DNA of 32,000 nucleotides from Acaryochloris marina MBIC11017 (lineage in GTDB: Bacteria > Cyanobacteriota > Cyanobacteriia > Thermosynechococcales > Thermosynechococcaceae): assembly GCF_000018105.1 (NCBI RefSeq), contig NC_009925.1, positions 2,610,001-2,642,000 on the forward strand, written 5' to 3'. The notes beneath the pieces are model-generated. The model was not told where the DNA came from. It saw only the letters and a program-made list of their open reading frames with translations, and made no database searches. Shown here piece after piece: positions 6,968 through 15,774 of this stretch. A program made the translations under genes and the position numbers. The stretch's first letter is position 1; each line of letters starts with the position of its first letter.

Positions 6968-8218
6968 TTAGTTGGGTAGAGCTAGGTAAGGAAACTGGGT
7001 TTGGAGTGGACTGTGGCCCTGAGAGGGATTGCCAGGAGTGCCCTCATAGGAAACGTTATCCGTGGTGATCGCCCCGTTGGTGAGAACGCTCAGGGTAATA
7101 TCCACCACATCGTCTTTAAGCAAGCGACCGCGAATGGGGCTGCCTTTGCTATTCAGGGCATTACCATAACCACTGGTATCCGTGGTATCAATTCGCATCA
7201 CGTCGGGCAAGAAGGCTTGCAATAAGGTATTGGTGCGCTGGTCATCGTTGCCAATGGCTTTGAGGGTTTGAGCGGCTTCATTGACAATGGGGCCAGCAAC
7301 TTTAGCGGCAGGCTTTTGACCAGCCAGAGCAGCGGCTTCAAAGTCAGGACCGACACTATTGAGGGCATTGAGGAAATCATTGGAAACAATTAACCCTTCG
7401 TTGACTGCCGGACGGGCTAAGCGTTCTACTTGTCGGTATTTACCACCTTTGCCCCGGACGGAGATGGTTTGCCAAACGTCAAAGGTCGTGGCACCCGACT
7501 GATTCTGGAGGAATTTGATGGGAACACGAACTGCGATCGCATTGACGTTATAGCCCGTTGTAAAGTCTACGGCTTTGTCAGGGTCCCGGAAGCCCACGGC
7601 AGGTCCTTTGCCTAATGCCCCGGCTCGGACTCGAAAAAACTGCTCCACATCGAAGAAGAAGGGATCTTCTCGGAGTCCAGCAAATACGAAGAGGGTCTGG
7701 CCGCCCATGGGCACTTGGGTGGTTTTGGGGTCACTATTGAGGGGAGTCGTGATCGCTTTGCCCACATGACTACTGCCATCGCGAATCGTCGTAATTTTGA
7801 CGGTCTGAGTCTGATTTGGCTTGGGTTGACTAAATTCAAATCGCAACGTCACATCCGGCTTACCCGTGGGGGTGGCGTCGTTATCGGGGGTGCGAGCAAT
7901 ATGAAATTCGTAGCGGGCCTTGTTATTGAAATAGTATTGCTGCCGTGCCACCGACCGAGGATTGGTATTCATAATCAACACCAAGTCATCGGTAGAGGCG
8001 TTGGGATTTTGATCGCCTTCGCGGAACACATATAAGTCCGTCAGGTTGAGATTGCGGCTCTTGGTATTGGTTTCACCATCATCATGATCCGAAGCCAAGG
8101 TAGCGGGGGCAATGCTGCCCAACGAGAGGCCAAGTCCTAAAACCACGCCACTCAATTTCAACAAAGATTTAGCAGAGAATCGGCGGGTGGCCTGATTTTG
8201 ACGGGGGTTCGATAGCAT
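6968..8218 (-). CDS. Secreted DUF4331-like protein
   Basis: I placed the start at the internal Met of MLSNPRQNQATRRFSAKSLLKLSGVVLGLGLSLGSIAPATLA, which gives a signal peptide. The mature N-terminus SDHDDGE...LTDLYVF resembles the DUF4331 signature as I recall it (S-H-R-E-A-P...D.TD.Y.F). The coordinate 8218 is derived from the ORF-track frame and may be off by 1 nt. Confidence 0.65.
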   Translation of the reverse strand: MLSNPRQNQATRRFSAKSLLKLSGVVLGLGLSLGSIAPATLASDHDDGETNTKSRNLNLTDLYVFREGDQNPNASTDDLVLIMNTNPRSVARQQYYFNNKARYEFHIARTPDNDATPTGKPDVTLRFEFSQPKPNQTQTVKITTIRDGSSHVGKAITTPLNSDPKTTQVPMGGQTLFVFAGLREDPFFFDVEQFFRVRAGALGKGPAVGFRDPDKAVDFTTGYNVNAIAVRVPIKFLQNQSGATTFDVWQTISVRGKGGKYRQVERLARPAVNEGLIVSNDFLNALNSVGPDFEAAALAGQKPAAKVAGPIVNEAAQTLKAIGNDDQRTNTLLQAFLPDVMRIDTTDTSGYGNALNSKGSPIRGRLLKDDVVDITLSVLTNGAITTDNVSYEGTPGNPSQGHSPLQTQFPYLALPN

Positions 8219-8429
8219 GTCTATCTCCTGCGAGTACATCAATGCGTTGACAGCAACCAGAAAAGGCTGCAAATTGACTGATAATGGGCAGCAGAAGCTT
8301 GTCCGCCCTCGGGCAGACTTCGCCGTCAACTTCCTTTCATTCAGCAATCTGTAGGGGTATACGCTAGGGGTTGGTGATTGGATCTGTTTCTCGAAAAATT
8401 TGTTGGAATCACGTGAGTTTAAATCGGGA

Positions 8430-8996
8430 ATGACTGTCCAAAACACCAGTGAGGACTTGGTTTTAATCCACCAAGTGGCTGAACAGAATCAAGCCGCACT
8501 ATCGATGTTGTATGACCGATATGCAGGCATCATTTATGCGATCGCATACAAAATGCTGGGGTCCGTCGAAGAAGCCGAAGAAGTGGTCTTGGATGTATTC
8601 GATCAAGTCTGGCGCACCGCCGCTAAATATGATCGCAGTCGCAGTCGAGTCGATTCTTGGCTATTTATGCAGGCCCGCAGCCGCACCTTAGATCGCCTTC
8701 GCAAACGGCAGCGCCAAGCCAAGGTCGTCGAAGCTTCTACGGTAAACGCGCCCATCGAGTCCGATACCAAAATGGCCCTGCCTGAAGAACATGCCCTGAT
8801 TCAAGAACGGCGCGATCTTGTCCAAGTCGCCATGGCCCAAATTCCACCGGAACAACAGCAGGTGATTGAGCTGGCCTATTTTCAAGGGTTATCCCAATCA
8901 GAAATTGCCAAGCAAACTGGCCTGTCCCTCGGCACCGTCAAAACCCGAATTCGGTTGGGTTTAAGTAAGTTGCGAGGCATTCTTGATCAATCTTGA
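8430..8996 (+). CDS. ECF-type RNA polymerase sigma-70 family factor
   Basis: Region 2 is LYDRYAGIIYAIAYKMLGSVEEAEEVVLDVFDQVW and region 4 HTH is LAYFQGLSQSEIAKQTGLSLGTVKTRIRLGLSKLR. The ATG is at 8430; the ORF-track start at 8400 is TTG. Confidence 0.88.
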   Translation: MTVQNTSEDLVLIHQVAEQNQAALSMLYDRYAGIIYAIAYKMLGSVEEAEEVVLDVFDQVWRTAAKYDRSRSRVDSWLFMQARSRTLDRLRKRQRQAKVVEASTVNAPIESDTKMALPEEHALIQERRDLVQVAMAQIPPEQQQVIELAYFQGLSQSEIAKQTGLSLGTVKTRIRLGLSKLRGILDQS

Positions 8997-9168
8997 GGAG
9001 TAAAAAAATGCGAGAAATCTGCCCATAGACAGATCCAAAGTCATTTTGAGGACGTAATACTGGTATAGGCTTTTTCATCAACTCATCTCAGCATAACCAG
9101 GGTCAGAGATCAGCCTGCTTCAGTCCTCCTATTCAACATCCCCATAACCCACAGGCTAAGATGTAGCT

Positions 9169-9774
9169 ATGAATCACTCAGCTCCACAACCCAATCCTGA
9201 AGAGCTTTCCAACTGGGCAGCCTTATCGGCGCTGGGTGCGTTGGCTGGGGACGATCAGCTAGCCGAGTCCTTTTCAGCGGATGAACTGGATGCAGAAATT
9301 GCTGGGTTTGAAGATGCGGTATCTGCGATCGCATACAGCGTTCCCGCCATGCCCATATCTCCCAAGCTGAAGGAGCGGCTGTTTCAACGGATTGACGCCA
9401 CCACTCTCCAATCTGCTGAGCTATACGCGCTCATCTCTCAGCCTATTGAGGAGTTAATTGCCCTATCCAATCAATTGCAATGGCAAGACATAGAAGGGCC
9501 AGGTGAGTTTAAGCATGCGGTCTACCAAACCAACACCCTACATCGAGAGCTGGCCTTTTTTGTCAAGTCTGACCAAGGGGGGCTTTTCCCCAAGCATCAT
9601 CACGCCGCTGGGGAAGAAATTTTGGTCTTGGCTGGCGATTTGGTGGTGGATGACCAGGTGTATCAGAAGGGAGATCGCATTGTGTCTGCGGCAGATACCA
9701 TTCATCAACCTGCCACCCGCAACGGTTGTCTCCTATTCTGCGTTGCCTCTATGGACAATCAGTTTGTGTCTTAG
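9169..9774 (+). CDS. Putative cytoplasmic anti-sigma factor with a C-terminal cupin (ChrR-like) domain
   Basis: It lies directly downstream of the ECF sigma gene. The N-terminus is anti-sigma-like (WAALSALGALAGDD...) and the C-terminus is cupin-like (HHHAAGEEILVLAGDLVVDDQVYQKGDRIV...IHQP). I saw no TM segment and no HxxxCxxC zinc motif. Confidence 0.6.
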   Translation: MNHSAPQPNPEELSNWAALSALGALAGDDQLAESFSADELDAEIAGFEDAVSAIAYSVPAMPISPKLKERLFQRIDATTLQSAELYALISQPIEELIALSNQLQWQDIEGPGEFKHAVYQTNTLHRELAFFVKSDQGGLFPKHHHAAGEEILVLAGDLVVDDQVYQKGDRIVSAADTIHQPATRNGCLLFCVASMDNQFVS

Positions 9775-9789
9775 ATGTCAAAGTAGACG

Positions 9790-10017
9790 TCAGTCTTTGA
9801 GGCCACAGATCATGTCATCTATGGATTGACTGCTTTGGGTATCCTCTGATTCGACCATCCCTGCATAGTTCATCCAAGGTTGTGAACCATCAACTGGCGG
9901 AACATTACGCAAAGAGCTTTTCCGAAGCTCTGCTAGGGAAATACCTAACCGTTCAGCTTCTTGCTTTGCAGCCTGATATTTTTCTTCAGATAAGCTACTC
10001 TGGATGCGAAGCACCAT
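9790..10017 (-). CDS. Ribbon-helix-helix (CopG/VapB-like) antitoxin; no toxin gene present
   Basis: The N-terminus MVLRIQSSLSEEKYQAAKQEAERLGISLAELRKSSL is RHH-like. The acidic C-terminal tail (PWMNYAGMVESEDTQSSQSIDDMICG) is typical of VapB-class antitoxins. The ATG at 10017 lies inside the attC-2 outer core, and the ORF ends 15 bp from the convergent anti-sigma gene. Confidence 0.55.
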   Translation of the reverse strand: MVLRIQSSLSEEKYQAAKQEAERLGISLAELRKSSLRNVPPVDGSQPWMNYAGMVESEDTQSSQSIDDMICGLKD

Positions 10018-10098
10018 AACGGTGGAGTTGTGCGGCGGCAAGCGACTGCTAAGTTTTATCAATCCCTTTATCCCGTCCGCACCAACGAAGTGTTAGCT
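10014..10098 (-). other. attC-like recombination site 2 (end of the R-M cassette)
   Basis: On the + strand the site reads CCATAACGG-N9-GCGGCGG ... CCGTCCGC-N9-GTGTTAGCT. Stem pairs are 10027-10030/10083-10086, 10031-10035/10077-10081 and 10036-10038/10073-10075, with C10082 and T10076 unpaired. It has the same skeleton and spacing as attC-1. Confidence 0.6.
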
Positions 10099-11270
10099 GT
10101 TTCATTTGACCGGGGAGATATAGCTTGGACTAAAGAGTTAGCTATTCGATAACCCAACTCTACAGGTACAGCATTACCGATCTGCCTCATTGCTTCTGTC
10201 CATGAGCCAGAAATCCTATAATTGTCTGGAAAGGTCTGGATTCTTTTAGCTTCAAACGTAGTGTAATAGCGTATTCGACCATCTTGATATCTAATCATAT
10301 TTTCTCCACCAGGAACTCCATGATCTCCTGCCTTAAGGGCTTTAGAGGGCATATCAATATAGCTACCAGTATGTCCAGGATAAGATCGCGCACCTTCTCT
10401 CAAGACATGTTCATTATCAAAACTACCTTGGATGTCAGGAGCTGGAAGTTTTCCAATTTGATCCCGAACTGTCTTCCAGGGTTCTAGAGAAGGAGAAAAT
10501 AAACTAGGCTGTTGCATGAGCTGCTTAGCTCGTTGTTGTGTTCTTTGGTCTAGATGTTCAATTTCTAAGGGATTGACCGCATTTCTTATCCAGTAAGCGC
10601 CAGTAATAAATTGTGACCACAATAGAGAATCTAAAGAATGAGATTCTTCAGGAAAAGACCACTCGATATTTAAATCTTCTCTAATTCCAACAATAAAAAC
10701 TCTTTCTCGGCGCTGAGGAACCCCATAATTTGCAGCGTCTACTAGCCGAAAAACAACATTATATTTGATGCCATCATACTTCCCTGAAGTGTGAATCTTC
10801 TCAAGCCTTGCAAGATGATCTTCCCAACGTTCTGAAGCTTGAAGAGAAAGGTCAGGATATCTCAACCTCAAGAGAATGTACTCAAAATAGCTACTGAAGG
10901 ACTTACGTAGCAACCCTTTGACATTCTCAAAGACAAAAGCTTTAGGTGTACAAACACTTATCGCTTTACAGGCGTAAGGGAACATATCTCGTTTATCCAT
11001 ATTCCCTTTATGTTTTCCTCCCATCGAAAATGGTTGACATGGAGGTCCACCAGAAACTATGTCAACATGACCAAATTGTGAAAATTTAAATGTACGAATA
11101 TCTACATTATGAACAAGCTGAGCACTGTAGTTATTAGCTAAAGTGATGCAAGCATCCTTGTTCCATTCAACAAAAGCCGTGTGCTGAACTCCAGCCTTTT
11201 CTAGACCTTTTGCCAGACCTCCAGCTCCTGTGAACAACTCTAAACAGGATAATTTAGGCATCTTCTTCAT
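10068..11270 (-). CDS. DNA (cytosine-5)-methyltransferase
   Basis: Motif I FTGAGGL, motif IV GGPPCQPFS, motif VI ENVKGL, motif VIII QRRERVFIVG, motif X GNAVP. It overlaps the upstream nuclease gene by 17 nt. Confidence 0.93.
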   Translation of the reverse strand: MKKMPKLSCLELFTGAGGLAKGLEKAGVQHTAFVEWNKDACITLANNYSAQLVHNVDIRTFKFSQFGHVDIVSGGPPCQPFSMGGKHKGNMDKRDMFPYACKAISVCTPKAFVFENVKGLLRKSFSSYFEYILLRLRYPDLSLQASERWEDHLARLEKIHTSGKYDGIKYNVVFRLVDAANYGVPQRRERVFIVGIREDLNIEWSFPEESHSLDSLLWSQFITGAYWIRNAVNPLEIEHLDQRTQQRAKQLMQQPSLFSPSLEPWKTVRDQIGKLPAPDIQGSFDNEHVLREGARSYPGHTGSYIDMPSKALKAGDHGVPGGENMIRYQDGRIRYYTTFEAKRIQTFPDNYRISGSWTEAMRQIGNAVPVELGYRIANSLVQAISPRSNETANTSLVRTG

Positions 11271-11943
11271 TCAATTCATTCATAAAAGCTTCAATGCTTT
11301 GCAAGAGATCTGCTTTATTAGCGTGAACTCCCTGACATTTTTCCGCCCAAAGGCGGCCTGGGTGGCAAACATCCCAGTCAGATTTTGCTTGCTCATATCG
11401 CCCTTTTCCAGGATCGTGGTTACCAAAACCATCAATTAAAGTATTCCAAAGTGGTTGATATTTCCTGATAAGAGCTGCTTCAACAGTTCCAATTAAGTCG
11501 CTTTCTTTACCCTCAAGAATCATGAATCTACAGAAAAAGTCGGAGCTGTTTACACCTTCTCCGATCTCTATACTGCGACTATGTTCTCTTATTCGATTAT
11601 TTAGCTCATAGCTTTTTGTATCTGAAGATGATGACTGTCTGGCTTGTCTCCAGCCTTTGGGGACTGCTTTTCCAACATAGATAGGAATATGAAATGCAGT
11701 CCTATTAACTGAATTAAATCTTGAATAAATTCCAGACTTAGCGATGCAATACAAGGCATAAACACCTGTGCCGTGAAAACGTGTGGGCACGGGAATTGAA
11801 TGCACAGGTGTACCGTTAAAAAAACGTATTGTGTCCTTGATTATTTCATCAAAATCCGGAGAAACGTAGACATGTTTAGAGCGGTCAAAACTATTCATAT
11901 GACTAAATTTAGACCGATAACCGTAAGCAAAGCAGCGCCACAT
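11254..11943 (-). CDS. GIY-YIG type II restriction endonuclease, Eco29kI-like
   Basis: GVYALY...IPIYVGKA (the GIY and YIG elements), NNRIREH (Arg/His), TVEAAL (Glu) and LWNTLIDGFGNHDPGKGR (Asn). The gene is translationally coupled to the C5-methyltransferase gene. An alternative start is the ATG at 11898. Confidence 0.72.
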   Translation of the reverse strand: MWRCFAYGYRSKFSHMNSFDRSKHVYVSPDFDEIIKDTIRFFNGTPVHSIPVPTRFHGTGVYALYCIAKSGIYSRFNSVNRTAFHIPIYVGKAVPKGWRQARQSSSSDTKSYELNNRIREHSRSIEIGEGVNSSDFFCRFMILEGKESDLIGTVEAALIRKYQPLWNTLIDGFGNHDPGKGRYEQAKSDWDVCHPGRLWAEKCQGVHANKADLLQSIEAFMNELNEEDA

Positions 11944-12030
11944 TATATTCGATTTTGCTGCCCTTATGTTTGAAGTGAAGCTAATTTGCTATCAGGAAGC
12001 ATTAAAGGGACAGCAGCAAAGCCCCTAGAC

Positions 12031-12116
12031 GGCTAACGGCACAACGTAGCGGCTGCAGATAACCTTGAACTCAGCACCAGTAGCCTTCTACCGTCCGCTG
12101 CCGTGATGTGTTAGGC
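12031..12116 (-). other. attC-like recombination site 1 (end of the PD-(D/E)xK cassette)
   Basis: On the + strand the site reads GGCTAACGG-N9-GCGGC ... CCGTCCGC-N9-GTGTTAGGC. The outer cores GGCTAAC/GTTAGGC pair at 6 of 7 positions. GCGG 12049-12052 pairs with CCGC 12095-12098 and T12094 is unpaired. The site starts 11 bp after the ORF stop. Confidence 0.65.
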
Positions 12117-12126
12117 GAGCTACAAA

Positions 12127-13101
12127 TCATCTCCGCTGCTTAGATAAAGTACGAGCGGCTTTAGAAGTAGCTTTCTTGATGTCAGTCATTAAAGTATCAA
12201 AGTTAGACGTTTGACAAATTACAAATTGAGTAAAATATTGGACAAGAGTAAAACGCCTTCCCTCTGATAATGACTTGCAAAGAAACGAAGGTAAATAAAA
12301 TCCGTATTCTCCGTTTTCTGCGCGGTACTTTTCAATATCATTGAATTCATCGAAATCAAGTTGCCCAAGCTTTGAGCACTCACGAGTACAGTGTCTTTCA
12401 AAATCAGGACCATAATCTGAATACAGGACTAAATAGGGAGTCGATTTTGCAATGTCAGTAAGGACAGTTGCATCCTCAACCATATTGGCTGTGAGTTTAT
12501 TATGTGCGACTAGAAGTTCAGCAGTAGTAAGGAGTATTGGGCACACGATAAAAGGAATACTATCTTCACGATGTCCGTATAAATTGAAAAGAGCTGCTTC
12601 AGAAATGAGTCGTGGGAGAGCATATTGGAGTTGTGAGATTCCATGTTTGATCTCAGCATCATACACACGACCATCTGATTCATCTACTTCTACTCCCTTG
12701 TAACAATGATGCGCGTTTTCATCAAACTCCACCGTTGCATTGGAGCGGAAGAATTTCTGGGAAAACCTATCGATAGTGCGAATGGTTCGACCAAGCACAA
12801 TTGGCGAAAAGTCAGCTCTGTTGGGATCTGGGCAGAATAACCATTTAACGTTTGGATTCCGTTGCTTACATTCTACCAACAGTTCAAGCTGGGCTGTTAT
12901 CTTATTGGGGTTGGAGAATGGTAAGAAAGCAGAGGCTTTCAAATCGACTGAAAAATCTTTGGCAATACCAGAATCATCACGAGCATAGGTGTAATCAGCA
13001 TCAATAGAAAAACCGTGCGAAACAAGAGACTTTGCCACTTCAAACTCCAAAGGAAGACTTGAGGAGACAAGTTTACTTTTCCATTTAGTAGAAATAGACA
13101 T
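12127..13101 (-). CDS. Uncharacterised protein with an N-terminal PD-(D/E)xK (Mrr-cat-like) nuclease motif
   Basis: The N-terminus is LPLEFEVAKSLVSHGF...DFSVDLKA...LELLVECKQ, which fits the E...D...E-x-K pattern. I do not recognise the C-terminal ~200 aa. Confidence 0.6.
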   Translation of the reverse strand: MSISTKWKSKLVSSSLPLEFEVAKSLVSHGFSIDADYTYARDDSGIAKDFSVDLKASAFLPFSNPNKITAQLELLVECKQRNPNVKWLFCPDPNRADFSPIVLGRTIRTIDRFSQKFFRSNATVEFDENAHHCYKGVEVDESDGRVYDAEIKHGISQLQYALPRLISEAALFNLYGHREDSIPFIVCPILLTTAELLVAHNKLTANMVEDATVLTDIAKSTPYLVLYSDYGPDFERHCTRECSKLGQLDFDEFNDIEKYRAENGEYGFYLPSFLCKSLSEGRRFTLVQYFTQFVICQTSNFDTLMTDIKKATSKAARTLSKQRR

Positions 13102-13382
13102 CCAGGATTAATAAATAGTATCAGCCACTATAACGCTGATCTTCGACGATTTCCGGGTACTGTTCCAGTTAAAGAGCGAAGCTGCCTAACTATGGTTATA
13201 CGACAGACTGACGTATAACTCTCCTATATAGAATATTAGATGCCAAGTGTCGTATAACAACCTTCCAACGGGAATTAAATGTCAAGTGTCGCCTAATACC
13301 ACTGATTTGGATAGTATTGCGACATATTATCGGATAAAACCCCTATTCTCACCCCTATTGAATCAAGCTTCCCATAACTGTA
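13102..13382. other. attI-like region between cassette 1 and intI
   Basis: GCCTAAC at 13184-13190 reads GTTAGGC on the cassette strand and lies 193 bp from the intI start. Short CGTATAAC-type repeats occur nearby: GGTTATACGAC around 13194-13204, GACGTATAAC around 13210-13220 and GTCGTATAAC around 13249-13258. Confidence 0.5.
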
Positions 13383-13789
13383 ATGTCTCCTGGTGTCCAG
13401 AAACAGCCTCCACGCCTGCTAGATCAAGTTCGTCAATCAGCCAGACTTAGGCATTTTAGTCACAAGACTGAAAAGTCATACATCTACTACATTCGATCAT
13501 TCATCCTGTTCCATCAGAAACGCCACCCTCGTGAAATGGGAGTTGACGAGATTCACGCCTATCTCTCTCACCTCGCCATCGATAAACAGGTAGCAGCCTC
13601 AACTCAAAATGTGGCATTGAGCGTTTTACTGTTTCTCTATCAGCACGTTCTGTCAATTTATTTACCTTACATTGACAAGATTGAGCGCGCTCGCAAGCCA
13701 GCACGGTTACCCACGGTCTTTTCACGCTCTGAAATCGCGGAGATTCTAGATAATATGAGTAGGGGCCACTTGTTGACGGCCAGCTTCTT
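13383..13789 (+). pseudogene. intI: Integron-integrase-type tyrosine recombinase gene; only the N-terminal ~135 codons remain
   Basis: LLDQVRQSARLRHFSHKTEKSYIYYIRSFILFHQKRHPREMGVDEIHAYLSHLAIDKQVAASTQNVALSVLLFLYQHVL...ARLPTVFSRSEIAEIL matches the conserved IntI N-terminal core-binding domain. Similarity ends at ...LLTASFL, and the catalytic domain is absent. Confidence 0.75.
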
Positions 13790-15152
13790 AAGCTTTGGCG
13801 TTCTCCTGTGTTGCATCCCTAGCTGTTGAGAGACGTTCTTGCGCTTCAGCCACCCATTGATTCACTTCTGGTTGCGTCTCCAGAACAATCGGATTTTGCT
13901 GGGCTTTAGTCAGACACTTCTTCCAATCGGGTAGTGCTTTCTGCTGCTCATTCTTCGCTTCAGACACTTTAGCCAGCATACAAAATGGATCAGGGGCATT
14001 CGGCTCCATCTGGGCTGCCTGCTGAAGATGGTGTTCAGCCTTCGAGAAAAACTTCTGCTTTAACCGTGCCCACCCTAAATTCTTAAGAAGGCTATATTTC
14101 AGTTGTTTACCCTCGGGTGTCTCTTTATTACCTTGTTGTTCTAGCTTCCGCAACCCTGCCTGCAATAGCGGAGCCGCTTTGCCATACTCTTCATCGACAA
14201 TATCCAGCTCAGCTAAATTGTTATGGGCCTGCAGCCAAATCATCAGATCATCGCAATGGTCAGCATTAGCAGCATTACAGTTCACAAGGTCTTTCTGAGT
14301 CACCACAAGCTGATACTGTGCCTTCGCTTTTTCAAGCTGCTGCAAATCTTCATGGACCAAGGCCAAATTGAAATGCGCCTTAGGAAAATCTTGCTTCAGG
14401 GCAATCGCCCGCTTAAAGTCTTTGCGAGCACTGTCTAACTTGCCATTCTGATAATGAGCTTCGCCATTCTGGTTAGCCGTTTCCGCAAATCCAGGCAATG
14501 CAGAATGGATACCAGCCAGAGATAAAACTAGGATCAGGGCGAAGGTAAAACTTGCCTCCTGCCAATAGCGCTTATTGATCCGTATCCGACAGAGAAGACG
14601 CTCATAGGCTTGTCGGCCAGCTTGAGTTAAGGCCCCTCCCCCCGCGAGCAAGGCCAATAGGCTTTGGCCGGAGATCATTAAGGTTGAACCCAAGTCGATA
14701 CCCCCCGAGAATAGGCGAGTAGCAGTATCAGTAATTAAACTGGCCGAGATGGTCAAAATAACCAGGGTTCCGGCATTAAACAGCCAATCATATTCGTTCC
14801 ACCAATGCCTAGGTTCTGGAGCCCTGAGAAACCACCACCAAGAAGTGTGGGGCGGATTAACCAACTGCTGCCAAGCCTCTAAATCAAGGTGAGTCGCAAT
14901 CAAGACTTCATATTTTTTGAGATAGCAATCTAAATCCGCTAGCCGCAATAACTGCTGAGAACTCAACAAGGATCGCTCCGTCATCAAGGCCTGGATTTGA
15001 TCACGACAGGTCAAAAGATTGAGAATTTCTTCTGGCTTAAATTTGCCCTTGGGGCGATCAAAGATTTGCAAGCTAACACGATACTGATTCAGCAGCTTGT
15101 TGAACTCAGGTGACTGAGCAGGCTCATCAACCGTCAAAGAATGGGTATGCAT
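13788..15152 (-). CDS. Membrane-anchored TPR-repeat protein
   Basis: An N-terminal soluble region is followed by about 3-4 TM helices (LVILTISASLI..., LMISGQSLLALLAGGGAL, FTFALILVLSLAGI) and then C-terminal TPR repeats. I chose the ATG at 15152; the ORF-track start at 15197 is TTG. Confidence 0.7.
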   Translation of the reverse strand: MHTHSLTVDEPAQSPEFNKLLNQYRVSLQIFDRPKGKFKPEEILNLLTCRDQIQALMTERSLLSSQQLLRLADLDCYLKKYEVLIATHLDLEAWQQLVNPPHTSWWWFLRAPEPRHWWNEYDWLFNAGTLVILTISASLITDTATRLFSGGIDLGSTLMISGQSLLALLAGGGALTQAGRQAYERLLCRIRINKRYWQEASFTFALILVLSLAGIHSALPGFAETANQNGEAHYQNGKLDSARKDFKRAIALKQDFPKAHFNLALVHEDLQQLEKAKAQYQLVVTQKDLVNCNAANADHCDDLMIWLQAHNNLAELDIVDEEYGKAAPLLQAGLRKLEQQGNKETPEGKQLKYSLLKNLGWARLKQKFFSKAEHHLQQAAQMEPNAPDPFCMLAKVSEAKNEQQKALPDWKKCLTKAQQNPIVLETQPEVNQWVAEAQERLSTARDATQENAKA

Positions 15153-15774
15153 CTTTACAAGCAGAATTGAATAACAGCAGTCAAGATTCAGGCGCAACCA
15201 ATTTATCTAGCAAAAGCTAAAAATTATGCCATCAGCTCTTGAGAGAAAGATTATTCTTATCATAAAAACAAATGAAAATATCTAAAGTGAGTCTGGTCAC
15301 CATCACTAATAGTTCTAAATAATTTATTAAAAACTATCAGACTAGTCACTAAAAGTTATGGGGTTTATTAGTGCTAGCTCTATTTTTTCAGTTAGGCTCA
15401 GCCGGTCAAAAAAGTAAAAATTCTTCGATTTCACCCATCAATTTATTGATATACAGATCTTTTAGCCTTCAGTGTATCTCAAATAGGAATAGAGATAGTT
15501 ACGGTGAGCGATCATCCTAAACATACTTTATTAGCTCTCGGCAAGAAAGACTTCAAGAGACATTATTGGATTTCTAGACAGTGAGCAATCTTAAGATTCT
15601 ATAAGAAAGGGAAGACTAAAAAATCTGAGTACAAAATAAACAAAATTAAAGAATGGCGTAAAAATGGCCATTTGAAATGATGTTAGATATTAGAAGCTTG
15701 AATGAATTAGACAGCTCAGTTTTAAAATAATCATCTTTTTTATTTCCCATTTGTGAAACCTGGAGATCTAGAAA

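Follow-up and report, generated by a model that had tools for sequence, protein, structure and literature searches.

Is the 4-kb segment that separates an anti-sigma gene from a TPR gene on the chromosome of Acaryochloris marina MBIC11017 the remainder of an integron? The DNA under study is a stretch of 32,000 nucleotides (NC_009925.1, positions 2,610,001–2,642,000), called the window hereafter and numbered 1 to 32,000; the segment forms an island between 9,775 and 13,789, with four open reading frames (ORFs) on the minus strand and one on the plus strand. An earlier note had read it as a decayed integron with a truncated integrase gene (intI), an attI-like core and two attC-like sites delimiting three cassettes. 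The five observations behind that reading were borne out at their coordinates, and none of the three outcomes named as refuting it occurred. The locus is very probably the relic of an A. marina chromosomal integron, in which intI has been deprived of its catalytic half by a deletion ending where the TPR gene has its stop codon. What survives is attI together with two complete cassettes, both closed by a canonical attC hairpin that is probably of the cyanobacterial type; a third, distal cassette has presumably lost its own attC.

The intI relic and the attI region

The intI relic covers approximately 135 codons from position 13383 to 13787 on the plus strand and corresponds to the N-terminal SAM-like DNA-binding half of the recombinase (PF13495, E 6.5e-27; TIGR02249). 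The ORF itself extends from 13383 to 13829 (148 amino acids, aa). Beyond 13787 it runs as an out-of-frame antisense of the 3' end of the TPR gene (13788–15197, minus strand), which forms the right flank of the segment, and its last 13 codons are antisense read-through of that gene. Positions 1–125 of the 315 in the TIGR02249 model matched residues 12–136 of the ORF (127 bits, E 9.6e-37). The scores with other recombinase models were 103 bits for NF011946 (class 1-type), 43 for XerA and about 25 for XerC/XerD. When the full-length IntI (320 aa) of Kovacikia minuta plasmid pB was used as the tblastn query, only its residues 1–131 aligned, to positions 13395–13790, and no second match corresponding to the catalytic half was present in the entire 32-kb window. 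The similarity to IntI stops at the TPR stop codon (13788–13790), exactly as the earlier note had claimed.

The fragment showed 65–75% identity with members of a large clade of complete cyanobacterial proteins that bear the annotation "integron integrase" and come from Synechococcus PCC 7335, Pleurocapsa PCC 7327, Pseudanabaena PCC 6802, Halomicronema, Chroococcidiopsis and others; the closest full-length relatives carry this annotation and show 65–80% identity to P0031. Judged by these similarities, the fragment groups with the integron integrases and not with Xer or phage integrases, which had been one of the checks proposed for the first interpretation. Its GenBank label is "phage integrase N-terminal SAM-like domain protein". 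Between Acaryochloris strains the ratio of nonsynonymous to synonymous divergence (dN/dS) was 0.5–0.9 in the fragment and 0.09–0.17 in the flanking genes, and this raised ratio fits a pseudogene. A genome scan with the IntI fragment returned 12 loci, none of them in Acaryochloris. For the Xenococcaceae and Microcystis loci with IntI matches, and for those designated L024 and L013, no attC match was found within 10 kb.

The attI region (13184–13296, minus strand) comprises a core, an inverted repeat and two direct repeats. The predicted core GCCTAAC was indeed present at 13184–13190, 193 bp upstream of the intI ATG. It reads GTTAGGC on the top (minus) strand, and the predicted crossover lies between 13190 and 13189. 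The inverted repeat GTTATACG/CGTATAAC adjoins the core at 13195–13219, and the two direct repeats, 23 nt each, are located at 13235–13257 and 13274–13296. Homology among the window, Acaryochloris sp. CCMEE 5410 and two further strain variants (L011 and L048) sets in precisely at ...TAAC|TATGG; leftwards of this point the variants have nothing in common. The breakpoints of these four variants thus mark, as far as sequence comparison can, a site that adjoins intI, to which the first cassette joins and where the crossover falls at G|TT, as in an attI.

Three side observations concern this region. The segment 13191–13658, made up of the attI region with codons 1–92 of the intI relic, showed 95–97% identity between strains. 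In these 92 codons the synonymous divergence (dS) was about 0.10 and the nonsynonymous divergence (dN) was also low, next to a dS of about 0.27 in the adjacent TPR gene. This conservation is above the expectation for a neutral pseudogene, and DNA-level constraint, recent recombination or small-sample noise are possible reasons. A second attI-like copy was observed on pREC4, a conjugative plasmid of A. marina MBIC10699 (NZ_AP026079, approximately 37928–38031; L043 12001–12104). It is 81% identical to window positions 13186–13288, with homology starting at the CTAAC|TATGG core, and neither an intI remnant nor an attC was detected within 12 kb of it. Finally, contigs of the short-read runs DRR374621, SRR29694080/81/90 and DRR374622, and of another strain (L012), begin at position 13192, and the neighbouring DRR374621 contig stops at 13213; the DRR194263 and SRR4784082 contigs read straight through. 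The breaks between 13192 and 13213 could be due to the inverted repeat at 13195–13219 or to culture heterogeneity at the attI junction.

The attC sites

Two attC-like palindromes sharing a skeleton, with identical spacing and unpaired bases in the R''/L'' arm, had been claimed, and the sequence bears this out. Site attC1 is located at 12031–12116 (R' 12031–12037, R'' 12110–12116, extrahelical T at 12093 and extrahelical C at 12100). Site attC2 is located at 10014–10098 (R' 10014–10020, R'' 10092–10098) and overlaps the final 31 nt of a methyltransferase ORF. In both cases the bottom strand is the plus strand of the window, on which the common skeleton is TAACGG-N9-GCGGC...CCGTCCGC-N9-GTGTTAG. 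The top (minus) strand of attC1, from 12116 to 12031, reads GCCTAAC-ACATC-ACG[G]CAGCGG[A]CGG...TGTGCC-GTTAGCC, and that of attC2, from 10098 to 10014, reads AGCTAAC-ACTTC-GTT[G]GTGCGG[A]CGG...TCCACC-GTTATGG. The layout consists of a 7-nt R'', a 5-nt spacer, three base pairs, an unpaired base, six base pairs, another unpaired base and the variable loop. The complementary arm is without the two extra bases and continues with a 6-nt spacer and R'. On the bottom strand, the unpaired T and C belong to the R''/L'' arm of both sites, that is, the arm beside the ORF end, in agreement with the orientations of the ORFs and of intI. In attC1, T17 and G75 form a wobble pair on the plus strand only and leave a C-A mismatch on the top strand, which fits the bottom strand as the folding strand.

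As folding energy alone was not distinctive, covariance models were used. The first model, R1, was built from the two window sites and the homologous CCMEE 5410 site. A first run over 234 kb with default filters returned its own training sites and one marginal match; sensitivity required filters off and smaller targets, and R1 was run in that way. It then recovered all three attC sites of the Pseudomonas class 1 array pNCGM3741 (a pair following blaVIM-24 and a single one following aadA1, with E between 4e-8 and 1e-6) and the aadA16, aac(6')-Ib-cr and dfrA14 sites. One further match lay upstream of a Thiomicrorhabdus intI, and another five belonged to the integron of Kovacikia pB. All R1 matches were on the strand predicted from the intI orientation. 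The second model, R2, is a surrogate attC model made from nine non-cyanobacterial sites (class 1 sites of blaVIM-24, aadA1, aadA16, aac(6')-Ib-cr and dfrA14, with sites from the chromosomal integrons of Thiomicrorhabdus and Verrucomicrobia) and contains no cyanobacterial sequence. Applied with filters off to the whole window (64 kb of strand), R2 gave exactly two matches, both on the plus strand and over the full model length: attC2 with 42.6 bits (E 5.7e-10) and attC1 with 33.6 bits (E 3.1e-7). The attC-model check suggested with the original interpretation therefore turned out positive at both sites, with R2 as the surrogate, a result beyond what chance would give. No Rfam family matched anywhere in the window.

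In an alignment of 13 cyanobacterial sites that is itself fitted to R2, 92% of the cells were paired and 14 of the 19 pairs showed compensatory changes. None of 500 shuffles reached the observed values, and slid controls gave at most 0.051, compared with 0.533. A Cyanobacteria-specific attC model based on 51 sites, with 87 positions, has been published (Ghaly et al. 2021); positions 1–23 of its printed consensus are GcCUAAC-AAgUC-GcU-[G]-cAGCGG-[A]. Over these positions the window sites have the same layout and largely the same sequence, and they are 85–86 nt long for the 87 positions of the model. This attC type, which the earlier note thought worth documenting in a cyanobacterium, is already on record through that publication. 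The unpaired C of the bottom strand is replaced by G in the aadA1 site and is a C in the blaVIM-24 site, as in the window. The motif family recurs at cassette boundaries elsewhere, as the earlier note had asked to see: in CCMEE 5410, in Kovacikia minuta pB, on a Scytonema plasmid and in a seven-site array. Site attC1 is 86% identical to the site of the Scytonema plasmid, and attC2 is near-identical in both arms to the attC that follows the methyltransferase cassette of Kovacikia pB. On the strength of these sequence comparisons, 12031–12116 and 10014–10098 are genuine attC sites.

Cassettes, strain variants and alternative explanations

We infer attC recombination at the locus from established integron biology, according to which cassettes would have entered as circles, IntI recombining the folded bottom strand of attC (the plus strand of the window) with attI, the crossover falling at G|TT. 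Such a crossover would explain that a cassette starts with TTRRRY and that its inner core is complementary to G plus this start. Cassette 1 (12037–13189, minus strand, 1153 bp) contains the ORF 12127–13101 and most of attC1; it begins with TTAGGC, and its R'' GCCTAAC complements G+TTAGGC at 7/7 positions. Cassette 2 (10020–12036, minus strand, 2017 bp) carries a two-gene restriction-modification (R-M) unit of the Eco29kI type, and its inner core complements G plus the cassette start at 6/7 positions. Both lengths and both complementarities agree with the bookkeeping offered beforehand. The same rule holds in the variant L048, where the cassette starts with TTGGGC and the attC inner core is GCCCAAC, the complement of G+TTGGGC at 7/7 positions. 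From 9790 to 13101 there are four ORFs, each of them encoded on the minus strand, as expected from the original observation.

The R-M unit of cassette 2 consists of an Eco29kI-family restriction endonuclease (11254–11943, minus strand; PF09517 E 4e-72, PADLOC REase_II 1e-93) and a C5-cytosine methyltransferase (10068–11270, minus strand; PF00145 E 2e-61, PADLOC MTase_II 7e-143), whose ORFs overlap. With approximately 67% DNA identity and the same gene order as Eco29kI-family pairs on small Escherichia coli and Salmonella plasmids, cassette 2 is, by homology, a bona fide Eco29kI-type type II R-M unit. We take the specificity of such a pair to be CCGCGG.

Cassette 1 encodes a 324-aa protein of no known family (12127–13101, minus strand), labelled "hypothetical" in GenBank. 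Its alignment with AM1_2585 of A. marina MBIC11017 covers 94% of the protein and is free of differences. Homologues are patchily distributed over many phyla, with one archaeon (Methanoregula) and a 41-member Vibrio parahaemolyticus cluster. The protein had no match in Pfam, NCBIfam, PADLOC or the sequences of the Protein Data Bank (PDB). The AlphaFold2 model had a predicted local distance difference test score (pLDDT) of 95 and a predicted template modelling score of 0.93, and a Foldseek search of this model against the PDB gave nothing better than E 0.24. The best of these weak structural matches were mostly PD-(D/E)xK nucleases (AF1548, MspJI, NotI, Hjc). In the family, D53 and C78 never vary, and the residues on either side of C78, E77 and K79, show at least 90% conservation. 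Because of the conserved D53...E77-x-K79 and of the weak, mostly PD-(D/E)xK matches, our guess is that the modelled protein may be a nuclease-like defence protein, its gene being a candidate new defence gene with a nuclease fold.

The third-cassette remnant (9775–10019, minus strand) abuts the stop codon of the anti-sigma gene and contains a 75-aa ORF (9790–10017), the ATG of which lies inside the R' core GTTATGG. It is 93–95% identical, and in the same position, in CCMEE 5410 and L048. The ORF had no Pfam, NCBIfam or PADLOC match up to E 10, and no toxin ORF is adjacent to it. A ribbon-helix-helix (RHH) antitoxin would be recognized by a fold or family match together with a toxin partner, and neither was found. 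The single-sequence structure model (pLDDT 59) shows a free N-terminus followed by two helices, which may be compatible with an RHH protein and is no proof of one. Of the "defence- and addiction-type" cargo announced by the earlier note, the defence part stands, through the Eco29kI R-M pair, and the addiction (RHH) label is without hidden Markov model support. In CCMEE 5410 (L001), a frameshift close to the 3' end of the 75-aa ORF makes it continue into the anti-sigma gene.

In IntegronFinder terms, the locus would be a group of clustered attC sites without an integron-integrase (CALIN), beside an intI relic. The term CALIN applies where two or more attC sites fall within 4 kb and a functional IntI is lacking in the vicinity; here the two sites are 2017 bp apart, and only an N-terminal intI relic is present. 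A complete integron would have to encode an entire tyrosine recombinase, including the RHRY catalytic residues and the additional domain peculiar to IntI; with no catalytic IntI, the locus does not qualify as one. A sedentary chromosomal integron is one that occupies a single locus in every strain of its species and/or has more than 19 attC sites; the array holds two. The same locus was present in every Acaryochloris assembly met (MBIC10699, MBIC11017 (protein), CCMEE 5410 and contigs of four SRR124479xx runs), a set from which presence in all strains is not demonstrable because the intI fragment itself was the search query.

The strongest evidence comes from comparing strains. At 93–97% nucleotide identity, all variants have in common the genes for sigma and anti-sigma factor (the latter falling to about 81% against the window strain), the 75-aa ORF, attI with its surroundings, the truncated intI and TPR; they differ in the cassette content between attI and the 75-aa ORF. 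The window has the 324-aa gene and the Eco29kI R-M pair in this interval. Acaryochloris sp. CCMEE 5410 (L001) has a DUF1353 gene, a degraded insertion sequence (IS) and an attC of the same family as the window sites, with a compensatory CTGG/CCAG where the window has GCGG/CCGC. L048 (run SRR12447957) has the two-gene PADLOC candidate system PDC-M50 at 1618–2720 (M50A E 2.6e-27; M50B, with a ThsB-like TIR domain, E 6e-53) and a short attC of another type. In L011, further unrelated sequence lies to the left of the attI core, and the contig ends there. The set of cassettes seen at the locus across strains therefore includes an R-M system, a TIR-based PDC-M50 system, a DUF1353 gene and the 324-aa gene. 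These alignments show that the truncated intI, attI and the last cassette were inherited, and that the attI-proximal cassettes vary by strain. The mildly novel point is that the cassette content differs among strains with the same dead intI. The possible sources of the variation are turnover by an IntI acting in trans, differential loss from a larger ancestral array and recombinational spread of the deletion allele.

Two observations on the neighbourhood stand apart from this comparison. In CCMEE 5410, the degraded IS4-like transposase gene, broken into several ORFs, fills the interval from the DUF1353 cassette to the next attC; this gene and the frameshifted 75-aa ORF are found in L001 at 7505–8035 and 8105–9193. 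The ChrR-type anti-sigma gene (9169–9774, plus strand), the left flank of the 4-kb segment, has only 81–82% identity between the window and CCMEE 5410 or L048, while these two are 95% identical to each other and the neighbouring segments 93–97% identical. Its dS is 0.74, versus 0.27 for the TPR gene. This divergence looks like a recombination tract or an allele replacement ending at the cassette boundary.

Several points weigh against an integron relic. The folding energy of the plus strand as single-stranded DNA, a check proposed in advance, did not give the hoped-for signal: it was unexceptional at either site when compared with shuffles (z-scores of -0.19 and -1.36), and only the minus strand of attC2 stood out (z -2.90). 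The R2 training sites were chosen and aligned by R1, so that the R2 test is not fully independent. The IntI-specific insertion belongs to the missing half of the recombinase. A sigma-70 consensus scan of 13100–13500 gave no promoter (Pc) site, although cyanobacterial promoters may escape such a scan. R2 found no attC to the left of the third "cassette", which has none of its own, and this stretch might rather represent flanking DNA where a secondary site was joined. The unremarkable folding energy, together with the shortness of the core 7-mers and the presence of two sites only, would suit an explanation in which the 85-bp palindromes are ordinary intergenic hairpins or dispersed cyanobacterial repeats, and the island is a generic one for defence that some unrelated integrase of the phage type had inserted. 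We regard this as highly improbable: a non-cyanobacterial attC model matched both palindromes over their full length and nothing else in 32 kb, their unpaired bases, spacers and orientation fit the canonical attC and the published cyanobacterial consensus, the recombinase fragment scored 127 bits on the IntI model against about 25 on the Xer models, and the strain comparisons break at the attI core. It could also be argued that the 148-aa ORF is a retained stand-alone DNA-binding protein, for example an attI/attC binder or a regulator, since it is open at 147–148 aa in four lineages, is highly conserved at the DNA level, and resembles many short "N-terminal SAM-like domain" proteins of cyanobacteria, including those of the Microcystis and Xenococcaceae loci without attC nearby. 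This is improbable given the dN/dS of 0.5–0.9 compared with about 0.1 in the neighbours, the reduction of the ORF to 92 aa in L048 and L049, the antisense origin of its last 13 codons and a frameshifted tail in L012.

The integron relic remains the preferred reading, and the question is then whether it is still in use. The array would be unable to rearrange by itself because the locus encodes no catalytic IntI; it may now be a fixed small defence islet made of the Eco29kI-type R-M system and the 324-aa protein, maybe a nuclease, and it would remain a substrate for any IntI supplied in trans. A live platform, whose attI and attC are used by an IntI coming from another replicon or from incoming DNA, so that defence cassettes are swapped in Acaryochloris populations, is a real possibility, if a somewhat doubtful one. 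Four or five lineages with one identical intI-TPR junction carry three or four cassette sets, and the breaks fall exactly at the crossover. The segment from attI to the 5' end of intI is 95–97% identical despite a synonymous divergence of about 0.27 in TPR, and a second attI-like copy exists on the conjugative pREC4. In Xanthomonas, the integrons by ilvD mostly have a truncated or frameshifted intI, and the same lesion usually goes with an identical array, according to the account of Gillings et al. (2005) given in bioRxiv 10.1101/2025.06.18.660453. As far as that account goes, the Xanthomonas integrons resemble the window locus in their fixed chromosomal position across the genus, decayed intI and small lineage-variable arrays. 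They differ in that window-locus strains with one deletion junction carry different attI-proximal cassettes, and in belonging to another phylum, without the cyanobacterial attC. Because the same-lesion Xanthomonas strains described there usually share arrays, cassette differences under one intI lesion appear somewhat unusual, and this contrast favours a live platform. Against it, no intact Acaryochloris IntI was found among the 120 best relatives of the cyanobacterial IntI clade, among the best plasmid matches or beside the pREC4 copy, a search that did not include chromosomes. Differential loss from a larger ancestral array would give the same pattern, as would the spread of the deletion allele by homologous recombination among strains that already differed. 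The more specific proposal, that the integrase was dead before the Acaryochloris strains diverged and that the platform kept swapping attI-proximal cassettes through an in-trans integrase or transformation-borne cassettes, is in our opinion unlikely. If true, cyanobacterial populations would have in their "integrase-less" attI/attC loci a common and still active set of docking sites for defence genes.

Related integrons and significance

Cury et al. 2016 (PMC4889954) described cyanobacterial integrons, CALINs and intI pseudogenes close by, and also proposed that CALINs originate when a complete integron loses its integrase. The window locus resembles the CALINs of that study in its two attC sites 2 kb apart, the lack of a functional integrase, the co-oriented cassettes and the non-resistance cargo, and differs from them in keeping an intI remnant and attI. 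As the intI pseudogene screen of that study used a C-terminal intI profile, an N-terminal-only remnant such as the present one would escape it, and the locus would count as a plain CALIN. This is a blind spot of the tools, since screens of this kind class such loci as bare CALINs.

The integron of Kovacikia minuta CCNUW1 pB (NZ_CP083584) has attC sites of the same family, among them that at L037 9729–9814, which scored 73.5 bits with R1. It also has an attI core with two direct repeats, a cytosine methyltransferase in the attI-proximal cassette and an intI divergent from the cassettes. Unlike the window locus, it is plasmid-borne, with a full 320-aa IntI including the catalytic domain and at least five attC sites. 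The two IntI sequences are 52% identical over the window fragment. The Kovacikia protein carries an ALERKYP...W.WQYVFP stretch, which we assume to resemble the IntI-specific region of IntI1. A metagenomic contig with an IntI 70% identical to the window fragment has an adjoining co-oriented array of seven attC sites.

Compared with a class 1 integron, the locus shares the geometry and the attC architecture (7-bp R box, 5–6-nt unpaired spacer, 3 bp, extrahelical base, 6 bp, extrahelical T), and the N-terminal half of IntI1 is 41% identical to the fragment. It differs in having no catalytic integrase, no Tn402 or 3' conserved segment (3'-CS) context and no resistance genes. The window element is chromosomal and vertically inherited within Acaryochloris, unlike the mobile class 1 integrons.

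Each ingredient has been described before: integrons, the attC type of cyanobacteria, CALINs, intI genes in decay and cassettes for defence; a specialist would therefore not be surprised by the locus. Among papers in the searched library naming both integrons and Acaryochloris, neither term appears in the titles, and the one examined has integrons in its reference list only. For annotation, the region gains an unambiguous explanation in place of the SAM-like domain and "hypothetical" labels of GenBank. Several recent papers deal with integron cassettes that serve defence, and the Eco29kI R-M unit and the TIR-based PDC-M50 of a sister strain add cyanobacterial examples to the view of integrons as stores of anti-phage genes. 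With several sequenced strains, one intI deletion and differing cassettes, the locus is also a natural test case of whether array turnover outlasts integrase loss.

A comparable fragment was observed in the marine cyanobacterial metagenome-assembled genome JBCCYL010000074 (L047 9646–10038), which encodes a 130-aa IntI fragment 84% identical to that of the window over the aligned 70% of the query. Two attC matches are located at 7965–8052 and 1684–1767 of the same locus, in a different genomic context, pointing to a second, independently placed decayed integron.

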